DNA of 64,000 bases from Mobula birostris (GCF_030028105.1 NC_092379.1:93691488-93755487), one strand, 5' to 3'; counted from the stretch's first letter, positions 6,859 to 64,000 are shown. Numbers and translations: made by a program. The notes: generated from the sequence alone by a model not told the origin.

Positions 6859-7117
6859 TCTCTCTCTCCTTTTTCTCCCTCTGTCCCTCTCACTATACCC
6901 CTTGCCCATCCTCTGGGCTTTCCCCTCCCCTCTTGGCTCCATCCCTCCCCCTCCTGTCTTCCCCTATCATTTTGGATCTCCCCCTCCCACTTTCAAATCT
7001 CTAACTAGCTCTTCTTTCAGTTAGTCCTGATGAAGGGTCTCGGCCCGAAACGTCGACTGTACCTCTTCCTAGAGATGCTGCCTAGCCTGCTGCGTTCACC
7101 AGCAACTTTGATGTGTG
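6859..7117 (+). mobile_element. 5'-truncated Penelope-like 3' end
   Basis: Same 3' module as 28380-28715. TSD AAGCTAA(A/C)AGCCT at 6846-58 / 7118-30. Confidence 0.85.
7023..7058 (+). ncRNA. Minimal type I hammerhead ribozyme motif, intact core
   Basis: AGTC-CTGATGA-A-GGG(TCTCGG)CCC-GAAA-C-GTC-GACT: stem I AGTC/GACT, CUGANGA and GAAA boxes, stem II, GUC cleavage triplet. Confidence 0.8.
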
Positions 7118-7384
7118 AAGCTAACAGCCTCGACTTCCGGCATCTGTACTACATGGATTCAGTATTTAAAAATGATCATGGGACCATAATCCAATAAGAA
7201 TTAGGACTTCAAGAAAGGAAGGTAAGTAATTATTACCAAAAAAAGACTCAGGACCCAAGTACTACATCAGGAAGTTGATTTAACATGCAAATTAAATTAA
7301 CCTGTGCTCCACAGAACATTCTTTAACAAATTGATATATTTTAGAATGTTTGACAGATCAGGAGTGAATAACAAATGCATCACG

Positions 7385-8055
7385 TATAGGTACAGGTACA
7401 GCACAAGAACAGGCCCTTCTGCTCACAATGCTGTGCAGAACCAATTAAATTAGTAATCAAATGGCCAATTAAACTAATCTCTTTTGCCTCCACTAAGTCC
7501 ATATTCTTCCATTTTCCTAACATTCATGTGCCCATCTAAATGTCTGTGATTCTGATTCTAATGCATCTGTCTCTACCACCACCCCAGACAGCACATTCCA
7601 GGTACCCATCACTCTGTAAAAAAAAAAACATGCTCCTCACATCTCATTTGAACTTACCCCGTCTCACCTTAAATGCATGCCCCCAGTATCAGATAATTCA
7701 ACCCAGGGAAAAAGATAATGTCTGCCTTTATCTCTCAATCTTATAAACCTCCATCTGATCACTCCTCCGCCTCCACCACTCCACAGAAAACCACCCAAGT
7801 CTGCCCGAACTCGCATTATAGCACGTCAGTCTAATCCAGGCAGCATCCCTGTAAACCTCTTCCGCACCAGCTCCAAAGCCTCAATATTCTTCCTAAGTGG
7901 GTTAACCAGAATTGTATGCAATACTCCAGATGCAGCCAAACTAAATTTTTATAAAGCTGCAACATAACCTCCTGATGTTTGAACTCAATAACTAAACTAA
8001 TAAAGGCAAGCATGCCAGATGTCTTCTTAACCACCTTATCAACCAGTGCAGCCAT
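7385..8055 (-). mobile_element. CR1 3' fragment
   Basis: GMLAFIS...VMLQLYKNLV..HLEYCIQFW, followed by CR1 3' UTR. Confidence 0.75.
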
Positions 8056-8649
8056 TTTGTATACCTAGATTATTTGAATTTGCTGTAATCTCTCCAGGAC
8101 AGAGGTTAAAGAAACTAAATTTAAGTTCATGTTATTAAGTGGTAATGAACTTGCATGGACTGATAAGTTAGCAGACAAAACAACAGGAATAAACAAATCA
8201 TTTTTCAGGTTGATGACTACACTTACTAGTGATAAAGGGGTTTGTGTTGGAGCAGTAGCTGCTTACAATCTCAGTGACTGGGCTGAGGTGGGGGGTGGGG
8301 AGACAAGTATAATATACACAAATTCACAGGTGGCACAAAGCTAGGTGGCAATGCAGGTTACTGAAGAATCCAGGGAAAACACAGACAGACTGGTGACTGG
8401 ATCAGACATAACAGATGGAATACAATGTGGAAAATTGAGAGTTTGAACATTCCAGTAGAAAAAAGGTTTTAAAAAGTGATAAACTTCTGAGAGACTTGGA
8501 TGACCATGCAGATGAATCAAAGCTAATATACTATTAGAAAAGAGCATGCTGGCCTTTAAAGATTTATGCACAGAATAAAAACATCTTACTGCAATTATAT
8601 GGGACCCTGGTGAGACCCTACTGACAAAACTACGTGTAAGTCTAGTCTC

Positions 8650-9330
8650 CCTAATCAGAAAGTGGCTGCAGGAGAGAAAGAGGTACAAGGTAGTAGGTGA
8701 TAGGTGAAACTGGGAGAGGGGTAGGGGGTGAAATAAAGAGCTGGGAAGTCGATTGGTTGAATGAGATAAAGGGCTGGAGGAGGAATCTGATGGGATAGAA
8801 GACCATGGATAAGGTGAGAGGGGGAAATGGGAATGGTGAAGTGGGGGGGGGGGTAGTTTGAGGGCAATTACCAAAGAACGAAAAATCGATGATCATGCCA
8901 TCAGGTTGGAGGCTACCCAGATGTGCTTGAAGGGATTGCATTGGAGATGGCAGAAGTTACTGAGAATTATATGCTGGACACACAGGATGATGGGGTGGCA
9001 GGCGAGGACAAGAGGAACCCTGTCCCTGATGGGGTGGTGGGTGGACGTGTGTGAAATGGAAGAGATGCAGGTGAGGGCAGCATTGATGGTGGAGGAGGGA
9101 AAGCCCATTTCTTTGAAGGAAATCTCATTAGTTCAGGAATGAAAAGCCTTATCCTGAGTGTAGATGTGGCAGGAACAAAGGAGTTGTGAGAAGGGGATAG
9201 CATTTTTACTCTGACTTCTAATCTCTTTTTTCCAGTCCTGAAGTATCTTGGCCTGAAACATGAACTATTTACTCTTTTCCATAGATGCTTCTGGGCCTGC
9301 TGAGTTCCTCCAGCATTTTGTGTGTGTTAC
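8650..9330. mobile_element. Penelope-like fragments (minus GIY-YIG region, plus-strand tail)
   Basis: LGSLQPDGMIIDF and RDRVPLVL..HP motifs on the minus strand; plus-strand tail at about 9205-9330. Confidence 0.7.
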
Positions 9331-10021
9331 TGTAAGAACTCAGCCAGTCCAGCAGTATCTGTACAAAGAAAAACTACATCTGATGAAAACTCTATGATCC
9401 TAAACGTCAACTGGCTTCTCTTTCCATAGATGCTGCTTGACTAATTGACTAATTGAGTTGTTGCAAAATTTCTGTTTTTTCCCCACAGAACTGACCATTC
9501 ATGACAGAAGAAATTTCTTCAAAGAGGAAAACAGAAGACCAGTCATTGAATATATTCAAGACTGATAAGATTTTCGGATAGAGAGTATCAAGAGAAATGA
9601 GGACAGTTCAGGGGAACGTGACACAGGTAAAAAAATTTAGCCTTTATTTTGTTGACTGGTGCAGAAGGCACAAGGGGTAAGTGGCTAATCCTATATTCTT
9701 AAATACTAAAATTCCAATTAAACCCACAACACTGATAACTTGTACATATAATTTGGCCTTAAGTTTCCAGCTCAAGATTCAAATATTCTATTTTGAAAGA
9801 AGTGTTTAACTGTACCATACCAGCAAGTTTTTTTTGATAAAAGCCATGCAAACTAACCAAAAAGCAAATTTCCATGCAATTAATCTCAAATCTTACACTG
9901 ACAAAACCTGGAAGAAGGTCCAACACAACATGCATCATTCTGCATAAAGGGAAGAGCAACATTAATAATTGCAAATGGTCCATAAAAAACTATATTTCAT
10001 GAACGGACAGGTATACTGTAC

Positions 10022-11817: not shown

Positions 11818-12012
11818 CTTCATAAAAACAAAGTGAAAGCTCTTTCTCTCAGTCCATCAACTTTGGAAGAAAGTTTACTTTTGCAGCAGCTAGTATTAAA
11901 CAAGGAAAGGAATGGGATTTAATTCTGATACCCAATACCCTTGTATCTCCATCAACATGAAGAATGCAGGCACTCTAGTAAATGATGTTGGACCGTGTAG
12001 AGTACTGGCTTG

Positions 12013-14410
12013 GCAACACACACAAAATGCTGCAGGAACCAGAGTTCCGCACCTGCCATGACACTGAGCTCTTCTTCAGCTGCTGCCATCTCCAAGCCCA
12101 TTTCTTTGGCAAGGACTCCCCACACCGCACCGATGACCCTTCTTCCATCTTCAAGCCTCCTGCTCTTCCTGGACACCCCGCCCTGGTCTTCTGCCTGCTC
12201 TGAACCTTTTCATTACCAACTGCCTATGGGACATTAACAACCTACACTTTAACACTCCTCTCTCCTATTCCAGCCTCACTCCTTCTGAATGCTCTGCCCT
12301 CCATTCCCTCCGCACTAATCCTAATCTCATCATCAAACCCGCAGATAAGGGAGATGCTGTAGTAGCCTGGCGTACTGACCTCTACCTTGCCGAGGCCAAC
12401 TCTCAGACACCACCTCTTACTTACCCCTCAGAAAGGGCCACACTAAGGAACACCAGGCCATTGTCTCCCACACCATCACCAACCTTACTGACTCTGGAGA
12501 TCTCCCATCCACTGCCACCAACCTCATAGTTCTCGCACCCAGCGCCCCCCCCAACCTGTTTCTACCTCCTACCCAAGATACACAAACCCACCTGTCAAGG
12601 TAGATGCATTGTTTCAGCTTGTTCCTGCCCCACTGAACTCATATTGGCATACCTCGACTCTGTTTTATCCCCCTAGTTCTGTCCCTTTCTACCTACATCC
12701 CTGACACCTCACACGCTCTTGATCTTTTCTAGGATTTCAAGTTCCCTGGCCCCCATCACCATATTTTTACTATCCAGTCCCCACACACCTCTACCCCCCA
12801 CCAGAAAGGCTTCAAAGCTCTCCATTTTTTCTGGACACCAGCTCCCCTCCACCCAGCAGAACTTGCTCTTGCTCTCAATTTCCCCATAGGCTCCTCCCAC
12901 CTCCTTCAAACAAAAAGGGGTAGCCATGGGCACTCGCATGGGTCCCAGCTATACCTGGCTAGTCAGTTACATGGAAAAATCTATGTTTCAAGTCTATACT
13001 GGTGACCATCACGCACTTTTCGTACGCTACATCAATGACTGCATTGGTGCTGCTTCCTGCGCCCATACTGAACTCATCAACTTCATTCACTCTGCCTCCA
13101 ACTTGAATTTGAACTCTGACTTCAAATTCACCTGGTCCATTTCCAACACCTTCCTTCCCTTTCTCAATCTCATTTTCTCTATCTCTGGAGACAGCTTATC
13201 CACCAATGTCTATTATAAACCAACGTCTATTATAAACCAACGGACTCTCACAGCTACCTGGACTGTACATCACCCCACCCCACTACTTGTAAAAATGCCA
13301 TTCCCTTTTCCCAATTCCTCCGTCTCCACTGCATCTGCTCTCAGGATGAGGTTTTTCATTCTAGAATGAAGGAGATGTCCTCCGTTTTCAAAGAAAGGGG
13401 CTTCCTTCCTAAACCCTCAACACTGCCCTCAACCACATCTCCTCCATTTCTTGCACGTCTGCTCTTTCACCATCCTCCCGCCACGCTACCAGGGTTCCTC
13501 TTGTCCTCATCTACCACCCCAACAGCTTTCATGTCCAGCACGTAATTCTCCAAAAACTTCTGCCACCTCCAACTAGATCCCACCACCAAACACATCTTTC
13601 CCTCTCCCCAACTTTCTGCTTTCCTATGCGGCTCCCTTGTCCATTTCTGCCTCCCCATTGATCTCCCTCCTGGCACTTATGCTTGCAAGCAGAACAAGTC
13701 CTATACCTGCCCCTACAGCTCCTCCCTCACTGCCATTCAGGACCCTAAACTGTCCTACCAAGTGAGGCAACACTTCACCTGCGAGTCTGTTGGAGTCATT
13801 TCGGTGCTCCCAGTGTGGGCTCCTGTACATTGGTGAGACCCAACATAGATTGGGATACTGCTTCACCAAGCATCTACGCTCCGTCTGCCAGAACAACTGG
13901 GATCTCCCAGTGGCCACACATTTTAATTCCACTTCCCATTCCCATATGTCCATCCATTGCCTCCTCCGCTGTCGTGAGGAGGCCACACTCAGGAACAACA
14001 TCTTGTATTCCATTTGGGTAACCTCCAACCTGATGGCATGAACATCAATTTTCTCAAACTTCCAGTAATGCCCCCCACCTTTCTCCATTTCCCATCCCCT
14101 TTTCCCTCTCGCCTCATCTCCTCACCCACCTTCTAGTGTTCCTCCTCTCTTTCCTTTCTTCCATGGCCTTCTGTCTCTTTTACCAATTTACTTCACAGCG
14201 CTATACTTTATTCCCTTCCCTTCAGGTTTCACCTATCACCTTGTGTTTCTCTCTCCCTCGTCCCACCTTTTGAATCTACTCCTCAGCTTTTTCCTTCAGT
14301 CCTGCCAAAGAGTTTCAGCCCAGAACACCGACTGTACTTTTTTCCCCACAGATGATTCAGCATTGTGTGTTGCTCAGATTTCCAGCACCTGTAGATTTTC
14401 TCTTGTTTGA
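12013..14410 (+). mobile_element. Long Penelope-like retroelement copy (degenerate RT and GIY-YIG) in SLAIN intron 1
   Basis: IIKPADKG, AMGTRMGPSY, RYINDC, FKFTWSIS, LYIGET..RLG..F.KH, PVATHFN motifs with frameshifts. Short inverted copy of the 3' tail at 12013-12039. Confidence 0.88.
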
Positions 14411-16149: not shown

Positions 16150-17637
16150 TAAGACTTACCCTGGTTGGTGCTACCAAAGTGCAAAACCTCACACTTGACT
16201 GCATGTACTTTCATCTGCCACTTTTCAGCCCATATTTCCAGCTGGTCAGATCCCCTGCAAGCCATGATAGTCTTCCTCACTGTCCACTACACCCACAATC
16301 TTGGGGTCATCCTCAAATTTGCTGATCCTGTTAACCACATCATCATCCAGCTTATTGATATAGATGACAAACAACAATGCACCCAGCACCAGTGCCTGTA
16401 GCAAATCCACTAGCCACAGGCCTCCAGTCAGAGAGGCAACCATCTACTACCACTCTCTGGCTTCTTCAACAAAGCCAATGTCTAATCCAATTAACTACCT
16501 CATCTTGAATGCCAAGTAACTGAACCTTCTTGACCAGCTTCTCATGAAGGACATTGTCAAATGCCTCGCTAAAGTCCATGTGGAGAGCATCCACTGCCTT
16601 ACCTTCCAGAGGACCAATTTTGTTCTTTACAATCTTTTTGCCCTTAACATATCTGTACAATCCCTTAGGATTCCCCTTTACTTTCTTTGCTAGGACAACC
16701 TCATGCCTCCTTTTAGCCTTCTGTTTATCTCTCAAGTCCTCTCCTGCATTTCTTACACTCCATAAGTACCATATTTGTTCCTACCTGCCTATACCTGCAA
16801 TGCATCTCCTTTCCACCCCCCACTTATTCAGGGCTTCAGTATCTCTTGAAAACCAAGATTCCCTGAACCTGTTATCTTTACCTTTTATTCTGATAGGCTC
16901 ATATAAGCTTCATACTCTCAAAATTTCACTTTTGAAGGCCTCCCACTTACAATTTTGTCAGAAAACAGCCTGTCCCAAACCACACTTACCAGATCCTTTC
17001 TGACTCCATCAAAATTGGCCTCTCAGATTTAGGTCTGGTTTGCGGATTGAGATTCTATCTCTTTGCATATTTACTTTGACCCTAATGGCATTGTGATCAC
17101 TGGATCCTCTACACAAACTTCTATCACCTTCCCTGTCTCATTCCCTAATAGCAGATCAAGTATCACACACTCTCAGCGGGTCTTCCACATACTGATTAAG
17201 GAAACTTTCCCTTGAACACATCTGTCAAATTCTATCCCATCTAGTCCTTTTACATAATGGGAATCCCAGTCAATATATGGAAAGTTAAAAGAACCTACTA
17301 TAATAACCTTAAGTTTCTTGCAACAGTCTGCGAACTGTCTACAAATTATTTCCTACAAATCCCTTGAACTGTTGGGTGGCCTGCAACATAGCCCCATTAA
17401 CTTGGTCATACATTTCTTGTTACTGAGTTCCAACCATGATGCCTCACTAGATGAGTTCTCCAGTCTGTCCTCACAGAGCATCGCCATGATACTTTCTCAG
17501 ACTCCTTTAATCCCTCCTGCTCTGTTGCATCTAAAACAATGGAACCCCATAATACTGAGCTGCCAGTCCTGTGACCAAGTCTCATTAATGGTTACAATTA
17601 TAATATTTCCAGGTGTTGATCCATGCCCTGAGCTCAT

Positions 17638-27526: not shown

Positions 27527-28758
27527 ACATCGAAGTTGCTGGTGAACGCAGCAGGCCAGGCAGCATCTCTAGGAAGAGATACAGTTGTCGTTTCGGGCCG
27601 AGACCCTTCGTCAGGACTAACTGAAGGAAGAGCTAGTAAGAGATTTGAAAGGGGGAGGGGGAGATCCAAAATGATAGGAGAAGACAGGAGGGGGAGGGAT
27701 GGAGCCAAGAGCTGGACAGGTGATAGGCAAAAGGGATATGAGAGGATCATGGGACAGGAGGCCCAGGGAGAAGGAAAAGGGGGGGGAACCCAGAGGGTGG
27801 GCAAGGGGTATAGTCAGAGGGACAGAGGGAGAAAAAGGAGAGAGAGAGAAAGAACGTGTGTATATAAATAAATAACGGATGGGGTATGAGGGGGAGGTGG
27901 GGCATTAGCAAAAGTTAGAGAAGTCAATGTTCATGCCATCAGTTTGGAGGCTACCCAGACGGAATTTAAGGTGTTGTTCCTCCAACCTGAATGTGGCTTC
28001 ACCTTTACAGTAGAGGAGGCCGTGGATAGACATATCAGAATGGGAATGGGATGTGGAATTAAAATATGTGGCCACTGGGAGATCCTGCTTTCTCTGGTGG
28101 ATGGAACGTAGGTGTTCAGCAAAACAATCTCCCAGTCTGCAGGATCTCCCAGTGGCCACACATTTTAATTCCACATCCCATTCCCATTCTGATATGTCTA
28201 TCCACGGCCTCCTCTACTGTAAAGATGAAGCCACACTCAGGTTGGAGGAACAACTCCTTATATTCCATCTGTGTAGCCTCCAACCTGATGGCATGAACAT
28301 TGACTTCTCTAACTTCCGCTAATGCCCCACATCCCCCTCGTACCCCATCCGTTATTTATTTATATACATAGATTCTTTTTCTCCCTCTCCCTTTTCTCCC
28401 TCTGTCCTTCTCACTATACCCCTTGCCCATCCTCCGGGTTTTTAACCCCTCCCCCTTTTCCTTCTCCCTGGGCCTCCTGTCCCATGATCCTCTCATATCC
28501 CTTTTGCCAATCAACTGTCCAGCTCTTGGCTCCATCCCTCCCCCTCCTGTCTTCTCCTATCATTTTGGATCTCCCCCTCCCCCTCCCACTTTCAAATCTC
28601 TTACTAACTCTTCCTTCAGTTAGTCCTGACGAAGGGTCGCGGCCCGAAACGTCGACTGTACCTCTTCCTAGAGATGCTGCCTGGCCTGCTGCGTTCACCA
28701 GCAACTTTGATGTGTGTTGCTTGAATTTCCAGCATCTGCAGAATTCCTCGTGCTTGCG
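27527..28758. mobile_element. Penelope-like inverted (head-to-head) dimer inserted into Gypsy integrase
   Basis: 14-bp TSD AAGTTAAGTGACAC (27513-26 / 28759-72). Minus arm to about 28138, plus arm from 28139. Both encode the GIY-YIG C-terminus DLPVATHFN...RLEEQ...QPDGMNIDF. Confidence 0.9.
28622..28657 (+). ncRNA. Minimal type I hammerhead ribozyme motif, intact core
   Basis: AGTC CTGACGA AGGGTCGCGGCCC GAAA CGTC GACT. Confidence 0.8.
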
Positions 28759-29977: not shown

Positions 29978-29988
29978 GAGAGAGAGAT

Positions 29989-40992: not shown

Positions 40993-41034
<42 letters not shown>

Positions 41035-45284: not shown

Positions 45285-45289
45285 CTCTC

Positions 45290-45705: not shown

Positions 45706-46142
45706 CAACACACATCAAAGTTGTTGGTGAACGCAGCAGGCCAGGCAGCATCTGTAGGAAGAGGTGCAGTCGACGTTTCAGGCCGAGACCCTTCGTCAGG
45801 ACTAACTGAAGGAAGAGTGAGTAAGGGATTTGAAAGTTGGAGGGGGAGGGGGAGATCCAAAATGATAGGAGAAGACAGGAGGGGGAGGGATAGAGCCAAG
45901 AGCTGGACAGGTGAAAGGCAAAAGGGATACGAGAGGATCATGGGACAGGAGGTCCGGGAAGAAAGACAACGGGGGGGGGGGGACCCAGAGGATGAGCAAG
46001 AGGTATATTCAGAGGGACAGAGGGAGAAAAAGGAGAATGAGAGAAAGAATGTGTGTATAAAAATAAGTAACAGATGGGGTACGAGGGGGAGGTGGGACTT
46101 TAGCGGAAGTTAGAGAAGTCGACGTTCATGCCATCAGGTTGG
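45706..46142 (-). mobile_element. 5'-truncated Penelope-like 3' end upstream of the NSDHL promoter
   Basis: Perfect 14-bp TSD AGGGACAGTCAAAA (45692-705 / 46143-156). Confidence 0.9.
45768..45803 (-). ncRNA. Minimal type I hammerhead ribozyme motif, intact core
   Basis: Reverse complement reads AGTC CTGACGA AGGGTCTCGGCCT GAAA CGTC GACT, with a G-U pair closing stem II. Confidence 0.75.
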
Positions 46143-47613: not shown

Positions 47614-48117
47614 GCAATACTTAGAAGGTTGGAAAGACTCAGTGGGTCAGGCAGCACCTATAGAGGAAAATAAGCAGTTGACATTTTGGGCTAATACCTT
47701 TCATCAGGACTGGAAAGGAAGTGGGCAGAAACCAGAGTAAAAGCGTTTGGCTTGGGGGGGGGGGGTTGGGGGAAGAGGGGGATGGAGAGTAGCAGGAGAT
47801 AGCAGGTGATACATGAATCCAGGTGAGAGAGGGAAGGCAGGAGGATGGGGAAAGTGGGGAAAAGGGAATAATATGAGAAACTGGGAGGTGATAATTGGGG
47901 AAGGCAAAGGGCTGAAGAAAGAATCTGATAGGAGAGGACAATAGACTATGGAATAAAAGGAAGGGATGGGGTGGAGGGACCAGAAGGAAGAAGGAGAAGG
48001 CAGGTTGGGTGAGCGGGGCGGGGCTGGGTGATGCAGAGGGTATAATGGAGCCAGAGATAGGGGCATTTTGTGTGTTTTGCTCTAGATTTCCGGTATCTGC
48101 AGTCTCTCCTGTGTCTC
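47614..48117. mobile_element. Older Penelope-derived insertion with inverted tail
   Basis: 16-bp TSD CATCTTTACTCTTGTA (47598-613 / 48118-133). Minus arm to about 48062, then a short plus-strand tail. Confidence 0.75.
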
Positions 48118-50559: not shown

Positions 50560-53500
50560 CTTTGTGGGCGTTTGGGCTGATTCCGGTGGCCCAATCAGTA
50601 GCTGTTGCCGGCCACAGTGACGAGGTTTCTTGCAAGTCAGCAATGCTTGTTTAAAAGGAGAGTTTCGTGGGTGTTCAGGTTTATTTTGACAGTCCAATCA
50701 TTGGCTGGAGCAGGCTATAGCAACGTGATTTCTTGCAGGTCGATAATGCTTGTTTAAAAGTACAGAAGGAACATTGTTGGGAGTAGGCCAGTGCTGAAAG
50801 TAGGAGTGTCAGGCTTTGGCTCAGAGGAGGATTTGGCTCTAAAGAGTCTCCCAGGGAACTACGTCTGCATGAAGTTCATCCAGCTGCAGCTCCTCGAAGA
50901 CCGTGTTAGGGATCTGGAGCAGCAGCTGGAGAGAGTGAGGAGATAATCAATCACAGTTACAGGGGAGTAGTCACTTCTATGTTACAGGAGGTGAATAGCT
51001 GAGTGACTGTCAGGAGAAATGGAAATGTGAATAGCCAGTTAGCACAGAGCACCCCTGTGGCCATCCCCTCAATAGCAGGTATACCATTTTGGATACTGTT
51101 GTGGGGGGTGACCTCCCAGAGGAATGCCACTGGGACCAGGTTACTGGCACTGAGCATGGGTCCATAGCGCAGAAGGAAAAGAGGGAGAAGAGGGGAGCAG
51201 TAGTGATAGGGGACTCCCTAGTCAGGGGAACAGACAGGAGATTCTGTGGACGTAAACAGGACACTCGGATAGTGTAGAGTGAAGGGGCTCAGGATAGGAC
51301 AGATGGTAAAAAAGCAAAGATAGCATGCAGTCAGACCATCAGGAAGGGCAGTCAAATGCTAGGACAAAATTACAGCCAGTAGGTTGAGTATCAGTGCATT
51401 AGGAATACAGAATAATCAGGGCAGCAGATACAGTGCTCAAAGTGATATATCTCAATGCACGGATTATAAAAAATAAGGCAGATGATCTTGTTGCACTATT
51501 ACAGATTGTCTGGTATGATGTTGTGGCCATCACTGAATTGCAGCTGAAGGATAGTTGTAGTTGGGGGCTGAATGTCCAAGGTTATGTCTTGTATCAGAGG
51601 GATAGGAAGGTAGGTGGAGGGAATGGCATGCTCTGCTGGTGAAGAATGGCATCACAACAGTACGGACATGTGACATCGGATTGGAAGATGTTGAATCCTT
51701 GTGGGTAGAGTTAAGAAACTGCAAGGGTAAGAGGACCATGATGGCAGTTATATACAGGCCTCCCAACAGTGGCTGAGATGTGGACCACAGATTACAATGG
51801 GAAATAGAAAAGGCATGTCAAAAGGGTAACGTGATAATAGTCATGGGAGATTTGAACATGCAGGTCGATTGGGAAAATCAGGTTGGTAATGGGTCTCAAG
51901 AGAGTGAGTTTGTTGAATGCCTACCAGATGGCTTTTTAGAGCAGTTTTTCAATGAGCCAACTAGGGGGTCAGCTGTACTGGATTGGGTGTTATGTAATGA
52001 CCCAGAGGTGATTAGGGAGCTGAAGGTAACAGAACCCTTAGGAGGCAGTGATCACAATATGATTGAGTTCAACTTGAAATTTGATAATGAGAAAGTAAAG
52101 TCTGATGTAGCAGTATTTCAGTGGGGTAAAGGAAATTACAGTGGTATGAGAGAGGAGTTGGCCAAAGGAGTTGGAAGGAGATGCTGGCAGGGATGACAGC
52201 AGAGCAGCAATGGCATGAGTTTCTGGAAAAAATTAGGAAGGTGCGGGATAGATGTATTCCAAAAACAAAGTCGTGCATCCGTAGCTGACAAAGGAAAAAG
52301 CTAATGTAAAAGCAAATGAGAGGACATACAATACAACAAAGCAATAACTAACAGGAAGACAAAGGATTGGGAAGCTTTTAAAAACCTACAAGGAGCTTAA
52401 GGTAAAAAAAACCCTGAGCAGGCAATGAAATCGAGTTCATTTCTAATGATTGAGTTCAGCTTGAGAGTAAGCAAAGTCTGATGTAGCAGTATTTCAGTGG
52501 AGTAAATGAAATTACCATGGTTTGAGAGAGGAATTGGCCAAAGTAAATTAGAAGGAGATGCCGGCAGAGATGACAGCAGAGCAGCAGTGGCATGAGTTTC
52601 TGGGAAAATGAGGAAAGTGCAGAATAGATGCATTCCAAAAACAAAGAAATACTCAAATGGCAAAGTAGCACAACCATGGCTGACAAGGAAGTCAAAGCTA
52701 ATGTAAAAGCAAAAGAGAGGGCATACAACAAAGCAAAAACTGGCAGGAAGATAAAAGATTGGGAAGCTTTTAAAAACCTACAGAGAGTAACTAGAAGAAT
52801 TATTAGGAGGGAAAGATGAATATGAAAACAAGGTAGCAAACAATATCAAAGTGGATAGTAAAAGCTTTTTCAAGTACATAAAAAATAAGAGAGATGAGAG
52901 TGGATACAGGACCTTTAGAAAATAAGGCCAGAGAAATAATAACAGGGAACAAGAGATTAACGAGTATTGTAATACTAAATGAGTATTTTGCATCAGTCTT
53001 CACTGTGCAAGATTCTAGCAGTGTGCCAGGTGTTGAAGGGTGCGAGGGAAGAGAAGTGAGTGTAGTTACTATTAAAAGGGAGAAGGTGCTCAAAGCTGAA
53101 AGACCCAAGGGTACATAAGCCATCTGGACCAAATGAACTGCACCCTAGAGTCCTGAAAAAATTAGCGTAAGAGACTGTGGAGGCATTAATAATGATCGTT
53201 CAAAAATCATTGGGCTCTGGCATGGTGCTGGAGGACTGGAAAATTGAAAATGTTACTCCACTCTTTAAGAAAGGAGGAAGACAGCAGAAAGGAAATTATA
53301 GACCAGTTGGCCTGACCTCAGTGGTTGGGAAAATGTTGGATTCAACTGCTAAGAATAAGGTTATGAAGTACTTGGTGACACAGAACAAGATAGGACAATG
53401 TCAGCACGGTTTCCTTAAAGGAAAATCTTGCTTGATGAACCTTTTCAAATTCCTTGAGGAAATTACAAGTAGGATAGATAAATGTGAGGCAATAGATGTT

Positions 53501-54675
53501 GTATATTAGGATTTCCAGAAGGCTTTTGACAAGGTGCCACACGTGAGGCTGCTTATCAAGCAGTCCATGGTATTACAGGAAAGTTACTGGCATGGTTAGA
53601 GCATTGGCTGATTGGTAGGAGGCAGCGAGTGGGAATAAAAGGATCCATTTCTGGTTGGCTGCCAGTGACTAGTGGTGTTCCGCAGGGGTCAGCGTTGGGA
53701 CTGCTTTTTATGCCGTATGTCAATGATTTTGATGATGGAATAGGTGGCTTTGTTGCCAAGTTTGCAGATGATATGAAGATTGGTGGAGGGGCAGGTAGTG
53801 TTGAGGAAACAGGTAGGCTGCAGAAGGACTTAGACAGATTAGGAGAATGGGCAAGAATGTGGCAAATGAAATAAAATGTTAGAAAATGCATGGTCATGCA
53901 CTTTGGTAGTAAAAATAAATGTGCAGACTATTTTCTAAACGGAGAGAAAATCCAAAAATCTGAGATGCAAAGGGACTTGGGAGTCCTTGTGCAGAACACC
54001 CTAAAGGTTAACTTGCAGGTAGAGTTAATGTTGAGGAGGGTAAATGCAATGTTAGCATTCATTTCAAGAGGTGTAGAATACAAGAGCAGGGATGTGATAA
54101 GCATTGTTGAGGCCTCAGCTTGAGTATTGTGAACAGTTTCGGGTTCATCATCTAAGAAAAGATGTGCTGGCATTGGAGAGGATCCAGAGGAGATTCACAA
54201 GGATGATTCCAGGAATGAAAGGGTTATGACACGAGGAACGATTGATAGCTCTGAATCTGTACATGCTGAAATTTAGAAGGATGAGAGGGGGATCTCATTG
54301 AAACTTTCTGAATGTTGAAAGGCCTAGACAGAGTAGATGTGGAAAGGATATTTCCCATTGTTGGGAGAGTCTAGGACAAGAGGGCACAGCCTCAGGATAG
54401 AGGGGCATCCATTCGAAATAGAGATGCAGAGAAATTTCTTTAGCCAGAGGGTGCTGAATTTGCGGAATTTTTTTTTACCACAGGAAACTGTTTGGGGGGG
54501 CATGTCATTGGGTTTATTTGAGGCAGGGCTTAATAGGTTCTTGATTGGATGGTTATGGGGAGAAGGCTGGGGAGTGGCGCTGAGGACGGGAAAAAGGATC
54601 AACCATGATTGAATGGCAGAGCAGACTCGATAGGCCAAATTGCCTAATTCTGCTCCTATGTCTTATGGTCTTATG
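50560..54675 (+). mobile_element. Near-full-length degenerate CR1 LINE between NSDHL and CETN2
   Basis: ORF1 VVIGDSLVRGTDRRFCG (GDSL-like esterase); APE endonuclease YLNAR..NK, DVVAITE, VMGDLN, SDHN; RT NYRPVGLTS, GVPQGS, KFADD; tail (TCTTATGG)n. Confidence 0.92.
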
Positions 54676-56031: not shown

Positions 56032-57260
56032 GTGAGTGGCGGCCTTTCTGCTCCTGTGTTTTAGCCCGCGTGTATCACTGCATTGAGAGGACGGCCGAAG
56101 CCTTCTGTCAGGGGGTCACTGGACACCTGGCAGCGGTAGCAGGTGAATAATAGAAAGGGAGAATGGTGTTGAGACTGAGAATGGAGGATTTTCATAAAAA
56201 CTGTAAATCAAGAGATGATAACGGAAACTGCACAATTTTCGGGCGGCGGGAGGAGGTGAATATTGAGTATTAAAAAAGACAAACACTGGATCAATGCAAG
56301 CATCCGAGCCAATTTAATATTAGCTATAAGGTCCTTGAATATGATTCTGCATTTCCTTCTCCCCCGACCCACTCACCCTCAGCACATAGACATATTGAGG
56401 AAAAATGGGCAGGTAGAAAGTTTTAAGCTGATATGCTAATAGAATTTATTGTTGCATAGAACAGTTCACTGGCATTGAAATCATCTCACATAAAATAAGT
56501 AACAGTTAAACTACTGATCTGCTATTGGCAGCGGCATGGCCCCACACTGGTTGAATTGCTGTGAGAGTCTCAGCTTACCAGACGAAGCTTAGACTCGCCA
56601 CTGAACAATACCAGGAAAGAAAATGGTTAATCATTTGTTGAGGGACATAACGTTGACAAGGATATCTGCCCTTATTCTTTGAATGTTACGGGACCCCTTG
56701 TCTCAACCAATAAGAAACATGTAGGGACGATTAAACATCTCACCCCAAAGGGGAGCCTCAAGTAATCATATTAATACAGATTGAAAATCAAAACAAAAAC
56801 TCCCACAGTTTCTGGAGATGTATGGGGTCTCAGCAGATAAGTCAGCACCTGTAAAAAAAAAATAAAATAAATAATTAATGTTCAGGGTATATGATAATTC
56901 TTCAGAATCTCTTTGCTTTGATGAAAGGCCATGGACGAGAAATGTTACCACTGTTTCTCTTTCAGCTAACTGATTGAGGCACTGAGTACCTTCAGTATTT
57001 CTTTGCTTTTATTTCTTATAAATATTGAACTTTGCGGCAGTCATTTATAGGATTAGGCTAAATATGTACCAAGAGTTTGATAGCTAACTATTATTGGAAG
57101 TTAATCAGTAACACAGCAAGCATATATTCTTCAGGTATATTTATTGTGCCATATTTCTTTCATTGTCCAAGTAATTTAAGAGGGGTAGCATATTTATTTG
57201 TGGATAAATGGTACACTGGATAAATTGACAGGTGTTCAAGAATAAATTACATTGTGGGTA

Positions 57261-58280
57261 AACACTAGGAAATCTGCAAATGCTGGAAATTCAAGCAACG
57301 CACACAAAAAAATACTGGTGAATGCAGCAGGCCAGGCAGCATCTATAAGAAGAAGTACAGACAATATTTCCAGCCAAGACCCTTCGTCAGGACTAACTGA
57401 AAGAAGAGATTTGAAAGTGGGAGGGGGAGATCCGAAATGATAGGAGAAGACGGGAGGGGGAGGGATGGAGCTAAGAGATGGAAAGTTGGTTGGCAAAAAG
57501 GATACAAGGCTGGGGAAGGGAGAGGATCATGGGACAGGAGGCCTAGGGAGAAAGAAAGGGGAGGGGAGCCCAGAGGATGGAGACCAGGCAAGGAGTTATA
57601 GTGAGAGGGACGGAGGGAGAAAAAAGGGGAAAAAATAAATAAGGGATGGGGTACGAAGGGAACAAGGGGCATTAACAAAAGTTAGAGAAGTCAATGTTCA
57701 TGCCATCAGGTTGGAGGCTACCCAGAAGGAATATAAGGTGTTGTTCCTCCAACCTGAGTGTGGCTTCATCTGACAGTAGAGGAGGCCGTGGATAGACATA
57801 TCAGAATGGGAATGGGACGTGAATGCCAACCTGATGGCATGAACACTGACTTCTCTAACTTCCGTTGATGCCCCTCCTCCCCTTCGTACACCATCTGTTA
57901 TGTATTTATTATTATTTTTTCCCCTTTTTTTCTCCCTCTGTCCCTCTCACTATAACTCCTTCCCTGCTCTCCATCCTTTGGGCTCCCCTCCCCCTTTCTT
58001 TCTCCCTAGGCTTCCCGTCCCATAGTCCTCTCCCTTCTCCAGCCTGGTATCCCTTTTGCCAATCAACTTTCCAGCTCTCAGCTCCATCCCTCCCCCTCCT
58101 GTCTTCTCCTATCATTTCAGATCTCCCCCTCCCCCTCCCCCTCCCCCTCCCACTTTCAAATCTCTTACTATCTCTTCTTTCTGTTAGTCCTGACAAAGGG
58201 TCTTGGCCCAAAATGTCAACTGTACTACTTCCTATAGATGCTGCCTGGCCTGCTGCGTTCACCAGCATTTTTTGTGTGTG
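57261..58280. mobile_element. Penelope-like inverted dimer in CETN2 intron 1
   Basis: Arms about 57300-57714 and 57826-58280 are reverse complements. Degenerate TSD TTACATTGTGGGTA / TTACGTTGCAGATA. Confidence 0.85.
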
Positions 58281-59813
58281 TTACGTTGCAGATATGTTTT
58301 ATTTAAGGACCAAGATGCAACACTAACAAACCTTTATCATTTATTCTGTTTCTTCTGTAATTTTAGGAGACAAATGTACTGTTACTTAGCGCTGGATTTA
58401 GTCACAATTAATCAAGAGAATTTCATCTTTTATGATGTGATATCCATTTTTTTTTGTAGAGAAGTTGTGTGAACTGTCTTTGAAGGTTTTACCACACAGT
58501 TTAATATAGACATAGAATGATAGAACACAGGAACAGGACTCTTTGGATATTCAAACACCCATTTTCACTAATCCTGTTTTATTCCCTCCACACTTCCTTC
58601 ATCTCCTTCTTGACTCTATCACTCACTCATGCACACCAGGGACAGTTTAAACTTATTGCTTTGCATGGTTTTTATTAAATGCTGAAGGAGACCAGAGCAC
58701 CCAGAAGAAGTTAATGTGGTCAGGGAAAGAACACACAAACTCCACCCAGGCAGCACAAGGTCATTAGAGTTGTCCAAAGGTTGATGAACGTTCGTCATCC
58801 CTAAGCGTCAACTCCAATTCTCTTTCCACAGTGCAACCTGATCTGCTTTGTTTCCAGAAGTTTTTGTTTGTCTTTCATATTTTCATTGGCGTGACAGATG
58901 TTACATGACACAGGCCTTAGACGTACATTATCACCATCACTGTGCTGCTTAATTTTGTCTCGTTTGCTTAAACTTGGCTTGTTTCTTATGTTACTTGTCT
59001 CTTTCAGGTCATTTTATAGACAATTATTTTCATGATACTTCTTATAATAAAAGGATAAATATTGCCAGCTAAGTATTTGTTAGAGAATTCATGCATTCAT
59101 TTCCGTGCTTCACATGAAATGAGTAGAAGTTTACTGTAGGCTAGAAGAGCCCATTTTCTATTTTACTAACAATATCCCTAAATCAAGGATCATGCAAGGA
59201 TTATGTCACAGCTCCTTTCTTTGTGACTCTATGGATAACAGGCATGTACAAGAATGTAACTGGTGTAGGTAAAACTCCACACTGTGGTGAATGGAGTGAG
59301 AGGGAATTGATAGAAAAAAGTTAAGGGGTGAAAAATGCTTTCACTTCTTTGTTTCTGTAAAAGATGTCACACTCTTTGATTCCAGCTACTTAGACCCCCA
59401 CAACCACCTCCCCAACGCCCCATTCCACAGAGACAGCTTCACATTTGAAACTATCATCTTTGTTTTTTAAATACGCGACTTCCTCCAGACCGGTGTCTCT
59501 CTGTTTTAGACACTCTATTCACCATTGCTCCACCATTCATGAGCTATCAATGTGCCAGAATCATCCACTCCCACTTCTTCAATCCTTCTTTAAAACTTTC
59601 CTTTAAAATCCCACACTGAACTGAGCTTCTCATTGTCTCTCTTAATCTCCCTGTATCCAATTTTTTGTTTGTGGTGCATGGGATGTTTGTCTTATATGAA
59701 ATGAAGTTTATGAATGTCAGTTCATGATATTCACAGAAATATTTGCTTGCCTTGAAAAGCATTGACTAAAAATATTTTTCTAATTTAAAAGACATAACAT
59801 TGCAATGTTGCAG

Positions 59814-59972
59814 ACCCCTGTGTATAAAAAAACTCCTTTGAGTGCAACAGTTCAGCGGAAGAAGCCTGGACCAAAACCAGAAATTTCTGAAGATCAAAAG
59901 CAGGAAATAAGAGAAGCATTTGATTTGTTTGACACAGATGGTATTGGATCTATTGACGTAAAAGAACTAAAG
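59814..59972 (+). CDS. CETN2: Centrin-2 coding exon 2 (EF-hand 1)
   Basis: TPVYKK...[33 protein letters not shown]. ttgcag| acceptor, AAG|gtatat donor, 159 bp. Confidence 0.93.
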
Positions 59973-60466
59973 GTATATTTCCAAATCTGCTTCAGTTGGT
60001 TCTTTAGTCCAGAAATTATCATTTCTTGTTTCCTTTGGCGGGTCATTGTTTTCTATGTTTCCCTTGTATAGCTGAACATTATGCAGTGATGCATCTAGTC
60101 ACCCTGTGAATCACTGTAGCAAGTCTGGGTTTGTTATTGAAAAATGCAGTTTAAATATGCAGATGTAATATTAATGGTGAATACAATGAAGCACATGTAA
60201 GATATATTGCTGACCTGAAAGTGTCACCAATAATATACTAAAACTGCAACATCTATTCTTTTTCTACACAGTGCCCTGTAACTTTCCCATAAACATGAAG
60301 CTGCATTTTTTTTTGTTACTGTGTCAAATTTTCAAAAAAGTATTAAGGTTCAATTTTTGATTTAATCCACTTAGCTGATTGAGAAGAAACAACTATCACC
60401 TAATTGTTTTGCACTGTTCATTCCACTACAACAAATAACTGACTTTTGTTCCAATTTATGTTCCAG

Positions 60467-60595
60467 GTTGCAATGAGAGCTTTAGGATTTGAACCCAAGA
60501 AAGAAGAAATAAAGAAGATGATTGCAGAAATCGATAAGGAAGGCACTGGGAAGATTGACTTTAATGAATTTTTGGCTGCAATCACACAAAAAATG
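60467..60595 (+). CDS. CETN2: Centrin-2 coding exon 3 (EF-hand 2); gene continues beyond the window
   Basis: [43 protein letters not shown], 129 bp. Head-to-head with NSDHL as at human Xq28. Confidence 0.93.
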
Positions 60596-61045
60596 GTAAC
60601 TTATAACACGAAGAAAGCTTTATTGTATCCTTCCTAAAAAGAAAACACTTCCATGACAAGAAAGAATTAAAGTCCGATCTGTAAATTTGGATTTCGCTTT
60701 AGCAAATATGAGAACCTACAGAAAGAAGCAGGAGCAGGTCTTTTAGCCCTGAAACCTCTTCCAACCAGTAAAATAATGACTGATTAGATTTTAGCCTCAA
60801 CAACTCTCAGGTGCTCTCATGACCCTTACTTTCCCTTTATTCTGAATTCTGTATACTCAAATTTCAATTTACTATTATTATCAAAGTATGTATAAATTAT
60901 GCAACCTTGAAATTTGTCTCCTTACAGGCAGCCACGAAACAAGAAACCCAAAAGAACCCATTTAAAAAAAAGACTAACAAACAGTCAATGCACAGAGAGA
61001 AAAAACCCCACAAATTGTGCAAACAATAAAAGCAAGCAACTAAAC

Positions 61046-61558
61046 AGAGGGGTGATTGATAAGTTCGAAGCCTAAGGTAGAAGGAGTCAATTTTAGAAAA
61101 CCTAGCACATTTATTTTTCAACATAATCCCCTCCTACGTTTACACACTTAGTCCAGCGGTCGTGGAGCATACGGATCCCTTCTTTGTAGAAGTCGGCGTC
61201 TTGGACCTCCAGAAAATGGTTCGCAGCAGCGGTGATTGATACGTTCGTGGCCTGAGGTGAGTTATACAGCTCTCGTTACAGGCACTTGCAGTTCAACTTT
61301 TTGAGTGATTATGCAGAAAGTTCGAAGTTAATAACTCATCTCCTTCTACTGTAGGCCACGAACTTATCAATCACCCCCTGTGGACCTCTTTCTGGAGGTC
61401 CAAGACGCCGACTTCTATAAAGAAGGGATCCATATGCCCCAACACCACTGGACTAAGTGTGTGAATGTAGGAGGGGACTATGTTGAAAAATAAATGTGTT
61501 AGGTTTTCTAAAATGGACTCCTTCTACCTCAGGCCACAAACTTATCAATCACCCCTTG
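61046..61558. mobile_element. Mariner-derived fold-back MITE with nested TIRs
   Basis: TIR GAGGGGTGATTGATAAGTT at both ends plus inner copies at about 61229-58 and 61341-78. 61380-61493 encodes the mariner C-terminus DFYKEGI...WTKCVNVGGDYVEK*, mirrored in the left arm. TA at 61559-60. Confidence 0.88.
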
Positions 61559-61567
61559 TACTTTAAA

Positions 61568-63630
61568 AAGTTGAAAGTAAATTTTTATATATATAATGTA
61601 AATAAAATATGACCCTAAGATTCATTTTCTTGCAGTATACTGAATAAATCCATAACAAAATAATAACTATAACAGAATCAATGGAAGCCCACACCAACTT
61701 AGGTGTTCAACCAGTGTGAAAAAGACAACAAACTCTGCAAATTTAGAAAGCAAGAAATAATATAATAAACAAATAAGCAATAAATATTGAGAACAGGAGA
61801 TGAAGATTCCTTGAAAATGAGTCAGTGTGGTTGTCATTGATGGGGTGAGTGAAGTTGGGTGAAGTTATCCCCTTTTGTTCATGAGCCTGATGGTTGAGGA
61901 GTAATAACTGTTCCTGTACTTGGTGATGTGAGTCCTGAGGCTCCTGTAACTTCCTGATGGCAGCAGTGAGAAGAGAGCAGGGCCTGGGTGGTGGGATCCC
62001 TGATGATGCATGCTGCTTTTCTGTGACAACGCTTCAGCTAGATGCGCTCAAGTTACCCGTGATGGTTTGGGCCGTATACACTATTGTTCCTATGCCAGGC
62101 TGCGATGCAGCCAGTCAATACACTCTCCACCACACATCTATGGAAGTTTGTCAAAGTTTTAGATGTCCTGCTGAACCATTGCAGGCTCCTAAGGAAGTAG
62201 AGGCACTGCTGTGCTTTCCTTGTAATTGGATTTGTGTGCTGTGCCCAGGGAGGTTCTCCTAAATGATAACGTGAGGAATTTAAAGTCGCTGACTCTCTCC
62301 ACCTCTGATTCTCTGATGAGGACTAGCTCATAGGCCTTTGATTTGCTTCTCCTGAACTGTCAATAATCAGCTCCTTGCTCTTGCTATAATTGAGTGAGAG
62401 GTGGTTGTTATGACATCACTCAGCCAGCTTTTCATCCTCCCTCCGAGACGCTGATTCATCACCACCTTTGATTCAGCCAGTGGTGTCATCATCAAACTTG
62501 AATATGGCATTGGAGCTGTGCTCAGTCCCGCAGTCATAGGCGTAAAGTGAGTAGAGCAGGGGGCTACACATCCTGTGGTGCACCTGTGTTGATGGAGATT
62601 GTGGAGGAGATGTTGTTGCCAATCAAAACTGACTGGAGTCAGCAAGTGAAGAAATTGGGGATCCAATTGCACAAGGAGTTATTGAAGCCAAGGTCTTGAA
62701 GCTTATTGATTAGTTTTGAGGGGATAATGGTATTGAATACTAAGCTGTAGTCAATAAAGAGCTTCTTGATGTATGCATTTTTGCTGACCAGATGTTCCAT
62801 GATTGGGTAAAGAGCCAATGAGATGGCATCTGCTGTGTAATTGTTGCACTGATAGGCAAATTGGAGTGGTTCCAAGTTTATGGTTTTTTATCACCGACCT
62901 CCCAAACACTTCATCCCTGTGGATGTACGTGCTACTTAATGATAGTCATTGAGGCAGGTTACCACGTTCTTCTTAGGCACCGGTAGAAGTGAAGTCTGCT
63001 TGAAGCAGATGGGTACCCCAGGCTGCTGAAGTGAGATGTTAAAGGTCACAGTGAACACTCCAGCCAGGTGATTAGTACAGGTCTTTAGTACTTGACCAGG
63101 TACCCTTTCTGGGCCCAATACATTTTGTGGGTTTACCTTCCTGAAGGCTGCTGGCATATCAGCCTCAGAGACTCAAATCACAGGATCTTCTGGGGCAGTG
63201 GGAGTTCATAATGGTTCCTCCATGTTTTGACAGTCAAACTGAGCATGGAGGGCATTGAGCTCAACTGGAAGCAAAGCCCTGTTGTCTCCTACGTTGCTTG
63301 ATTTTACTTTATAAGAGGTGATAGCATTCAAGCCCTGCCACAGCCTTTGAGCATCCTTCATTGATTCAAGTTTAGTCCAAATTGCCACTTCGCCCGTGAG
63401 TTAGCTGTCTGGAGATTGTACCCGGACCTGCTGTAACTTTCTTGGTCACCAGACTTGAATGTCTTTGATCTGGACCTCAGCAGATTGCGGATCTAATGGT
63501 TCATCCAGGGCTTCTGGTTAGGGGAGACTGTAAATGATTCTGTGGGGACATACTTAACTGCAACTGTTTTAATAAAGTCCATGACAGCTATGGTGTATTC
63601 GTTCAGATCCATCAATGAGTCCTTAGGATA
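61568..63630 (-). mobile_element. Rex1/Babar-like LINE, degenerate, in CETN2 intron 3
   Basis: LWQGLNAIT, PVPKK..VTCLNDY, PLQFAY, LFIDYSLVFNTI; tail near 61570. Confidence 0.8.
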
Positions 63631-64000
63631 TACTGAATATCCTTGGTAACTTGGTCTCCTCAGCTACAGGAGGTAATTTGATCACAAACTAGAGAAAATC
63701 TTGCAGATGCTGGAAATCCGAGCAACACACACAAAATGCTGGATGAACTCAGCAGGCCAGGCAGCATTTAGGAAAACAGTACAGTCGACATTTCGGGCTG
63801 AAACCCTTTGGCAGGTAATCTGAGGTGGCTGATTAACCAAGTCATTAAGTAATGGACCATTTTGCAACATAGAAAAGGACAGGTAACTCTGGAATTGCGT
63901 TCATTTTGACAAACTGTGCTTATGCTAACATTCAAATATCAGTAAATTTGCTGCAATATGTAGAATTGCAACTGAATTTGTTGTTAATACCACTTGAACA

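Follow-up and report, generated by a model that had tools for sequence, protein, structure and literature searches.

Minimal type I hammerhead ribozymes in the 3' pseudo-LTR of a Penelope-like retrotransposon in a genomic window of Mobula birostris

Introduction

A stretch of 64,000 nucleotides from Mobula birostris (hereafter the window, with positions counted from its first letter) carries a short module at 11 cited positions, and the question it raises is which genetic element disperses this module and whether its copies can still cut RNA. Our analysis identifies the 11 modules as a minimal type I hammerhead located in the 3' pseudo-LTR of a Penelope-like retrotransposon. In our full reading, to which we give a probability of about 0.85, this mobulid ray element bears an endonuclease and likely belongs to the Neptune clade, and the window copies are 5'-truncated, decaying, divided among several subfamilies and likely inert.

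The minimal hammerhead of Penelope-like elements was published in 2014 from fishes, the coelacanth and a frog, in thousands of copies (Cervera and De la Pena, PMC4209133); the copy numbers in print are about 4,000 in the coelacanth and 9,000 in Xenopus (PMC4209133), and 126,247 type I motifs have been counted in the axolotl (PMC7229834). An earlier note on this DNA had suggested that the family may be uncharacterised in this lineage. This holds only in a narrow sense: our literature search found no paper on the minimal Penelope hammerhead in rays, but a 2026 preprint describes retrozymes with hammerheads in the single chondrichthyan genome that it covers (bioRxiv 10.64898/2026.07.22.740005).

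Results

The hammerhead motif in the window

Using the copy at 7016-7118 as the query, nhmmer recovered the module at all 11 positions of the 64-kb window (E-values from 3e-29 to 0.032), in agreement with the claim of about 11 copies, and the best match of a profile built from the window copies to the reversed window reached only E 1.9. A strict descriptor of the minimal hammerhead returned three sites, with C3 at 7027(+), 28626(+) and 45799(-), whereas the same descriptor found no site in 198 of 200 dinucleotide shuffles and one site in the other two. The Rfam scans gave no match, either in the window at the gathering threshold or in 28500-28800 at E 10, and Infernal with the Rfam models would therefore miss the motif here; of the scan with type I models that had been proposed, the strict descriptor recovers sites and Rfam does not. 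We also scanned viral (3 loci) and metagenome (22 loci) contigs with the pattern: none of these 25 loci is a member of the family (best E 0.42) and none has both stems of at least 3 bp, which indicates that matching the pattern does not in itself generate the stems.

The intact core consists of CUGAUGA, an unpaired A after A9, GAAA, CG and UC, with 5 bp in stem I and 4 bp in stem II, and comparison with the published class (PMC4209133) shows the G10.1-C11.1 pair and the palindromic ACGU at 15.2-16.2 without loop III. The whole motif, in which CUGANGA, GAAA and UH are closed by a helix I of at least 4 bp and by helix II, is present at 2 of the 11 sites, 7023 and 28622. Of the three cores described as intact by the earlier note, these two stand and 45768 does not: its CCC-GAAA reads CCT-GAAA, a change of C11.1 to U that turns the G10.1-C11.1 pair into G-U, so that it keeps the core with a G-U closing pair, and the remaining eight sites lack it. 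Three further details of the earlier note hold: the GUC to GAC change at 27583, the cut site following 7054, and the ACGT palindrome.

Protein domains and clade

The element reads, on one strand, RT, Cys linker, GIY-YIG, pyrimidine-rich UTR, ribozyme and tail. Two full-length RT and GIY-YIG proteins, P0008 and P0010, which match RVT_1 and GIY-YIG, align by tblastn with the window in the RT at 12137-13800 and in the endonuclease at 13805-14023, and the broken copy at 12137-14068 keeps the same order; their endonuclease also matches both arms at 27857-28298. When the window pieces were searched alone, Pfam gave no match for any of the three. The hammerhead at 14297-14334 follows the RT and the GIY-YIG on the (+) strand, and the same position is found in both arms of 27527-28758. 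In the ray relatives P0001 and P0007, RT and EN are joined by a C-X4-C-X2-C linker, which has decayed in the window copy with the loss of one Cys. A CX2-5CxxC linker is common to Neptune and Nematis (PMC8557442), and judging from this linker motif the element is likely a member of the Neptune clade.

Copies and insertion anatomy

Since two pairs of sites are the head-to-head arms of one unit each, the 11 sites correspond to nine insertions, and a tenth, a partial head-to-head pair at 40715-40930, was absent from the earlier list. All 11 listed sites are thus real, but they are fewer insertions than sites, and the list also lacked the tail-only inverted arms at 9331-9373, 12010-12039 and 48060-48115. 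What had been described as one family comprises at least two or three subfamilies, with module identities of 0.45-0.94 among the window copies. The genes around the copies are SLAIN-like, NSDHL and centrin. Target duplications of 13-16 bp lie above the null in 4 of 10 loci and are borderline in one; none was found at the other five.

The 5'-truncated copy at 6859-7117, antisense in a SLAIN-like intron, holds an intact hammerhead at 7022..7059 (+) with a predicted cut after 7054, and is bounded by a 13-bp target duplication with one mismatch at 6846 and 7118. The older insertion at 8695..9331 consists of an inverted arm, 8695-9209(-), that runs from the RT thumb to the UTR, followed by a ribozyme and tail at 9218-9331(+) with a 3-nt deletion in the ribozyme core. 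The adjoining unit at 9331..9480 is very old: its tail-only arm (9331-9373, (-) strand) precedes a decayed ribozyme, 9372-9415(+), that has kept CUGAUGA and lost G12. The longest copy, 12010..14410 (+), begins with the short inverted tail arm 12010-12039(-) and continues with a broken RT (about 12137-13390), the Cys linker and GIY-YIG (about 13680-14068), the pyrimidine-rich UTR and a long tail; its ribozyme at 14297-14334 is dead (A6C, G8A).

The head-to-head insertion at 27527-28758 lies in the integrase region of an LTR retrotransposon, and an exact 14-bp target duplication at 27513 and 28759 encloses both of its arms. Each arm comprises the GIY-YIG end, the UTR and a ribozyme: the left arm, 27527..28139 (-), carries its ribozyme at 27582-27619 (U16.1A, G1.1A) and stops 60 nt beyond its cut site (a short 3' end), and the right arm, 28140..28758 (+), carries the intact ribozyme 28621-28658, with a predicted cut after 28653, and extends 105 nt beyond its cut site (a long 3' end). 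A small head-to-head pair in an NSDHL intron, 40715-40849(-) and 40850-40930(+), has its long end on the left and its short end on the right, and both arms begin within stem II, without CUGANGA. The 5'-truncated copy at 45706..46142 (-), located about 420 bp upstream of the NSDHL start codon, has its ribozyme at 45767-45804 (C11.1 to U), a short end 66 nt past the cut site and an exact 14-bp target duplication at 45692 and 46143. In the old copy at 47614..48117 (-), flanked by an exact 16-bp target duplication at 47598 and 48118, the ribozyme at about 47674-47712 carries G12A and changes at 15.2 and 1.1, and the inverted arm 48060-48115(+) is tail only. An older head-to-head pair, whose target duplication is not above chance, is formed by a left arm at 57258..57821 (-), with a long end and a ribozyme at 57358-57395 broken in stem II and in the cut-site region, and a right arm at 57826..58280 (+), with a short end and a ribozyme at 58185-58222 that shows five CpG transitions including G8A and G12A. 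The short copy at 63682..63815 (-) is truncated within stem I, carries A6C and G8A in its core and has a long end about 105 nt past the cut site; its 11-bp duplication with one mismatch falls within the tail of the null and is the borderline case.

The 3' ends form two groups, lying about 60-70 and about 100-110 nt beyond the cut site. Both arms reach the tail in six units, and five of these have one short and one long end, in keeping with the pair of RT start sites described in PMC11167929 and with the one-sided tail described in PMC8557442. The 5' ends are random and extend into GIY-YIG and RT sequence. Truncation at the 5' end, an inverted adjacent copy, a one-sided tail of 30-40 bp and a target duplication are all found among the ray copies. 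As minor leads, the ribozyme arms in introns are antisense, and the arms of one insertion may derive from two RNA templates.

Abundance, conservation and decay

We compared abundance and conservation in 4 of 24 public runs; all 24 consist of contigs, none of them recorded as RNA, and contigs do not reveal RNA ends. The family is abundant in these related runs, with up to 69,981 matching contigs, where summed contig depths do not equal copy number. The earlier description of a Penelope-like element with a minimal type I hammerhead, a palindromic stem III and a high copy number in the lineage is supported. In three of the four runs loose ends cluster at 28622 (222, 171 and 5 contigs) and at 28656-28659 (129, 76 and 2+6 contigs), the two edges of stem I, and in the most distant run the depth peaks at 640-666 on the ribozyme versus 6-65 on the UTR. 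Likeness to other subfamilies starts and stops at stem I, and the module is therefore conserved. The variants come from 40 of 140 rows listed and the joints from 15 of 166 listed, and core variants or a splice joint missing there are no evidence.

Covariation in helices I and II among the 11 window copies scored 0.115, a value equalled by 489 of 500 shuffles, with a two-sided change in only one pair; paired cells amount to 83.5% at the true register versus at most 42.5% when slid. The test is weak because inserted copies decay neutrally and the sample consists of insertions, not masters. Of the check on stems I and II that had been suggested, conservation of the module was found in related runs but covariation among the window copies was not. 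CpG transitions account for 12 of 17 differences in six young copies, and G8, C11.1, G12, 15.2, 16.2 and C17 lie in CpGs, so that the catalytic bases decay fast. The core of the youngest subfamily is perfect.

Folding

The predicted fold is a rod of -11.1 and -12.9 kcal/mol versus -8.9 for the open hammerhead, and the predicted probability of stem I with flanks is 0.001-0.003. According to this model the monomer would block itself, with G5-G8 paired to the cut-site strand. The fold z-scores are unremarkable (-0.3 to -1.3, or 0.1). At -16.7, the modelled dimer falls short of the stability of two monomer rods (-22.2, -25.8), and dimer function thus rests on the literature and not on this calculation. 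Monomers of the minimal class show no cleavage and dimers little (PMC4209133). The ribozyme of the anole element cuts only with protein and is dispensable for in vitro insertion, and its site coincides with no RNA-seq read ends (PMC11167929).

Discussion

Our results suggest that the scattered copies are likely inactive leftovers of broken Penelope tail ends. The element protein would nick both target strands and reverse transcription would be primed at two sites in the RNA tail; the template RNA would be uncut, or rejoined, at the ribozyme, which would consequently travel as a passenger with each insertion. Cutting would be confined to transcripts of master elements and would require a dimer, formed through the ACGU palindrome, and help from protein, both proposed because of the predicted rod of the bare monomer. 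The window contains no full-length or tandem master copy and no partial tandem with a pseudo-LTR ahead of a complete ORF, and its intact ribozymes have no intact tandem partner there. The earlier reading of the density of copies as a density of self-cleaving motifs is not supported: only two of 11 are whole (two intact motifs per 64 kb, a figure from one window), CpG decay is at work, the window has no intact tandem partner and the monomer is predicted to misfold.

It is important to consider whether the motif, no longer needing to cleave, could persist because the pseudo-LTR uses it as a structural or protein-binding signal, with crippled-core lineages still spreading, which we regard as unlikely. 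The unlinked insertions 14298 and 63780 have A6C, G8A and a loop in common, which suggests a master with C6. In one tested ribozyme, A6C makes Mg2+-driven cleavage at 0.3 mM slower by about four to five orders of magnitude (PMC7151607). In vitro, insertion is not impaired by core mutations (PMC11167929), and Naiad elements thrive without canonical hammerheads (PMC8557442). However, A6C is shared by no more than two copies, both of them old, a CpG change such as G8A can arise independently in each, the core of the youngest subfamily is perfect and the likeness across runs is bounded by stem I. That the dispersed intact copies are live ribozymes cutting host transcripts, alone or in trans with other copies, is highly improbable. 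Two cores are whole, tens of thousands of family contigs exist in related runs, and where an insertion has a single ribozyme, the arm that carries it runs antisense to the host gene in all five cases within introns bounded by mapped exons (p 0.03), or in 7 of 7 (p 0.008) if centrin intron 1 starts at the CpG island, the intron status of 45768, 47676, 57358 and 58185 being inferred because centrin exon 1 was not located; such a bias would be expected if sense copies were harmful. Nevertheless, this sample is small, and a splice acceptor made up of the long pyrimidine tract and the AG at the base of stem I could produce the bias. In addition, the monomer is predicted to misfold, class monomers are silent and dimers weak (PMC4209133), and the head-to-head arms would anneal as long double-stranded RNA (76-91% of bases paired) and not as a dimer ribozyme.

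We give even less credence to the copies being non-autonomous, retrozyme-like units that spread through circular RNA after double self-cleavage. Rejoining into a circle would re-create the sequence that spans the cut site, which is what the copies show, and the 2026 preprint reports retrozymes from Penelope pseudo-LTRs in one chondrichthyan genome (bioRxiv 10.64898/2026.07.22.740005), but the window has no tandem array with the motif (8 of 8 TRF rows are unrelated), the 5' ends run at random into GIY-YIG and RT, and the 3' ends lie at two tail sites and not at the cut site. A chance match or artefact, for which the empty Rfam scans and the missing covariation could be cited, has a vanishingly small probability: the three strict sites exceed the shuffles, and position and features fit the published Penelope motif. 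The shuffle control, the conservation across runs and the RT/GIY-YIG anatomy together rule it out.

A further proposal concerns the head-to-head insertions, which could be copied from two RNAs held by a protein dimer and paired by the ACGU palindrome, a dimerisation signal more than scissors; we consider it very doubtful. The arms of 27527-28758 differ at 34 of 561 sites, and at 28412, 28509 and 28514 (transversions) and at 28379 the left arm agrees with the unlinked 45768 and the right arm with the older 58185 arm, where 28379, 28412 and 28514 are family-wide polymorphisms among the variants listed in related runs. Four transition sites instead unite both arms against 45768. Dating by comparison of the arms (34/561) with the host LTRs (6/137) does not discriminate (Fisher p 0.54), and in the 57358/58185 pair 25-28 sites unite the two arms while 2-5 conflict, with no sign of two subfamilies.

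The finding adds a ray to the hosts of a known Penelope feature and offers little beyond that. In a family that numbers tens of thousands of copies in several subfamilies, counting alone can address whether the ribozyme is needed for transposition (did an A6C lineage amplify), whether inverted units draw on a single RNA or on two, and whether introns have been cleared of intact ribozymes on their sense strand. If an A6C subfamily still spread, cutting in Mg2+ would be dispensable.

Comparison with known systems

As in the minimal class (PMC4209133), the ray hammerhead is type I, with a helix I of 4-5 bp, an unpaired base between A9 and G10.1, a G10.1-C11.1 pair and a palindromic 15.2-16.2 in place of loop III; it lies on the sense strand 3' of RT-EN, mostly in solitary truncated copies, with pairs on opposite strands. 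It differs from that class in its short helix II (4 bp) and in the placement of its catalytic bases in CpGs. The rows of Table S1 and Fig. S3 considered here include none from cartilaginous fish, and the Acropora Neptune and Ixodes rows of Fig. S3 have CUGACGAA and the C-GU-C core, as in the ray. The non-LTR retrozymes share with it a type I hammerhead, a Penelope relationship and a very high copy number (PMC7229834; bioRxiv 10.64898/2026.07.22.740005), but they are non-coding tandem repeats, whereas the ray copies are dispersed, not tandem, and keep RT/EN remnants; we rejected this class because the window has no tandem array with a hammerhead per unit and coding remnants are present.

The Poseidon element PAc of Anolis carolinensis (Frangieh et al. 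2024, PMC11167929) similarly has a pseudo-LTR ribozyme upstream of two 3' end sites 30-45 nt apart, and its insertions retain the uncut site. PAc belongs to the Penelope/Poseidon clade, whereas the ray element has the Cys linker. With Neptune and Nematis (Craig et al. 2021, PMC8557442; Arkhipova et al. 2013, PMC3846280) it shares the C-terminal GIY-YIG, the Zn-finger-like linker and 5' truncation. Unlike the Neptune/Nematis units, the ray sites show no microsatellite targeting, and the target duplications measure 13-16 bp versus 8-10 bp in the rotifer examples considered from these papers. Like the inverted units of these clades (PMC8557442; PMC3846280), those of the ray combine an adjacent inverted copy, a tail at one end and a duplication around the whole unit.

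Ribozyme modules and insertions

The 38-nt module at 7022-7059 is composed of stem I (UAGUC), CUGAUGA, an unpaired A, stem II (GGGU, a 4-nt loop and GCCC), GAAA, CG, UC and stem I' (GACUG), with a predicted cut after 7054. Homology searches recovered a homologue of this module at all 11 positions listed in the earlier note (E 3e-29 to 0.032). A strict hammerhead descriptor matched three sites in the window, against none in 198 of 200 shuffles and one in the other two; an Rfam search of the window gave zero matches. The number of working motifs had been set too high, since among the three cores claimed as intact only those at 7023 and 28622 are whole; that at 45768 has C11.1 changed to U, and the remaining 8 of the 11 sites carry a damaged core. 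The sites are real, but they represent nine insertions rather than 11 separate copies, or ten counting a missed pair of partial arms at 40715-40930 identified by homology and profile search; three tail-only arms had also been overlooked. At 40849-40850, the two arms of a 215-bp head-to-head unit meet within stem II, and the short fold-back units at 40715-40930 and 9331-9480 could pass for MITEs.

The ribozymes at 27583 and 28622 belong to head-to-head arms that a single exact 14-bp duplication encloses; the unit interrupts the integrase region of an LTR retrotransposon (25822-29964; 137-bp LTRs identical at 131/137 positions, gag-like and integrase ORFs, most of the RT deleted near 27450). The arms of this 27527-28758 unit differ at 34 of 561 sites, 4 of which track subfamily polymorphisms, a small lead toward two RNA templates; four transitions point the opposite way, and an LTR dating test on the arms gave no discrimination (p 0.54). 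Compared with 300 random pairs as the null, 4 of 10 loci have a clear duplication of 13-16 bp and one is borderline, and the same test found no target duplication at five. The 3' ends fall into two classes, about 60-70 or 100-110 nt beyond the cut site, and one short and one long end occur in 5 of the 6 units in which both arms reach the tail, the sixth being too decayed; contig loose ends in runs of related animals form the same two groups (28719 and 28752-28758). Two internal RT start sites explain such ends, according to PMC11167929. In X20, one of these runs, several well-supported joints connect 28742-28747 with 28665-28673, a pattern that could reflect a duplicated tail, a fold-back or an artefact of alignment; the tail holds complementary stretches at 28672-28679 and 28731-28738.

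The RT piece at 12890-13366 has as its best relatives ray proteins and two proteins of 809-845 aa with RT and GIY-YIG domains (10 matches among 304 candidates). Mapping with these relatives places RT first, then the Cys linker and then the endonuclease, all on the plus strand (12137-14068); a pyrimidine-rich UTR comes next, and the ribozyme and tail after it. The C-X4-C-X2-C linker, a hallmark of Neptune and Nematis in PMC8557442, is complete in the ray relatives P0001 and P0007.

Are the dispersed ribozymes active?

In folding predictions the bare monomer becomes a rod, with G5-G8 paired to 15.2-C17 (-11.1 and -12.9 kcal/mol, versus -8.9 for the open hammerhead), and when native flanks are added an upstream pyrimidine strand captures the core, with stem I at a probability of 0.001-0.003. 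In the same RNA-only model, without tertiary contacts or protein, a dimer that forms its stems I in trans reaches -16.7 kcal/mol and is no better than two rods. The intact copies at 7023 and 28622 lie 21.6 kb apart with a SLAIN-like promoter region in between, no tandem array in the window contains the motif, and the head-to-head arms are predicted to make long double-stranded RNA. In PMC4209133, monomer cleavage is absent and dimer cleavage low; for the Poseidon-clade anole element PAc, PMC11167929 describes cleavage only in the presence of the element's protein, insertion that does not require cleavage, and zero RNA-seq ends at the ribozyme site. Given the predicted misfolding, the distance between intact copies, the lack of tandems and the published activity data, we read the dispersed ray copies as passengers, with any putative ribozyme function confined to master transcripts: the ribozyme would travel in each insertion and would act, if at all, in those transcripts. 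Every copy that extends to the ribozyme continues across the cut site; therefore, the RNA template was uncut or rejoined there.

The ribozyme arms are antisense in 5/5 single-ribozyme insertions within mapped introns, and in 7/7 once the inferred centrin intron is counted. At 6980-7022, 28575-28621 and equivalent positions, a pyrimidine tract (62-84% over 45 nt) and an AG abut the foot of stem I, resembling a 3' splice site. They may mark where a Penelope intron ends or account for the antisense bias. Since the arrangement resembles that of Drosophila Penelope, whose intron ends at helix I in PMC4209133, splice interference would explain the bias just as well as cleavage.

Host genes and neighboring repeats

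SLAIN-like exons (115-24844, minus; 6 of the 8 pieces matched to a Mobula birostris protein are 100% identical) and NSDHL (35812-45284, minus) are accompanied by plus-strand EF-hand exons at 59784-60634, which we take to be those of a centrin from the sequence and from synteny with NSDHL. The host is a mobulid ray. A CpG island with several CCAAT boxes (45001-45550), immediately 5' of the start codon of NSDHL (45284, minus), is likely a bidirectional promoter common to NSDHL and the centrin gene; a Penelope copy lies 150-400 bp from it. Decayed LINE RT/endonuclease pieces lie in introns, some sense and some antisense to the host genes (41684-43475, 51777-54200, 16466-16780 and 20911-21496).

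Decay and abundance

No covariation was found among module copies within the window, as expected for copies that decay neutrally, although it still counts as a negative result. Six copies from the youngest subfamily show 17 differences, 12 of them CpG transitions, and CpGs cover 10 of the 38 module positions, including G8, C11.1, G12, 15.2, 16.2 and C17; methylation-driven decay would therefore inactivate these ribozymes quickly. The unlinked copies 14298 and 63780 (14301-14321 and 63795-63815) share A6C, G8A and the stem II loop. A6C occurs naturally and greatly reduces Mg2+ cleavage, according to PMC7151607, and these copies are possibly a subfamily that spread although its core was crippled or preferred Mn2+.

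Alignment to 28140-28760 at 85%, done for 4 of the 24 listed runs, yielded 69,981, 40,613, 11,454 and 134 contigs, counts that do not equal copy number. Contig depth, likewise no measure of copy number, is high over the GIY-YIG end and over the ribozyme and tail and far lower over 28329-28470, and in three of the four runs loose ends cluster at 28622 and 28656-28659, both edges of stem I. Judging by these contig counts, depths and ends, the Penelope family is abundant in related animals and its ribozyme module is better kept than the flanks.

Comparison with known elements

The earlier suggestion that the family may be uncharacterised in this lineage holds only insofar as no paper on the motif in rays was found by a search that excluded most subscription papers, Repbase and Dfam. 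It does not extend to the class: the class itself, the dimer model, its occurrence in fish Neptune and counts in the thousands appear in PMC4209133 (2014), 126,247 type I motifs are given for axolotl (PMC7229834), the class is reviewed in PMC6765202, PMC6155905 and PMC6431247, and a 2026 preprint (10.64898/2026.07.22.740005) reports retrozymes in one chondrichthyan. The ray motif belongs to this already known ribozyme class, and its detection was correct but ordinary. The element's insertions, with an inverted copy and a one-sided tail, match the Penelope units described in PMC8557442 and PMC3846280. In the U7 copies (7030-7120), an AUG within the core opens about 30 codons running through the tail and may be a start of the ORF; the ORF of the anole element begins at stem II.
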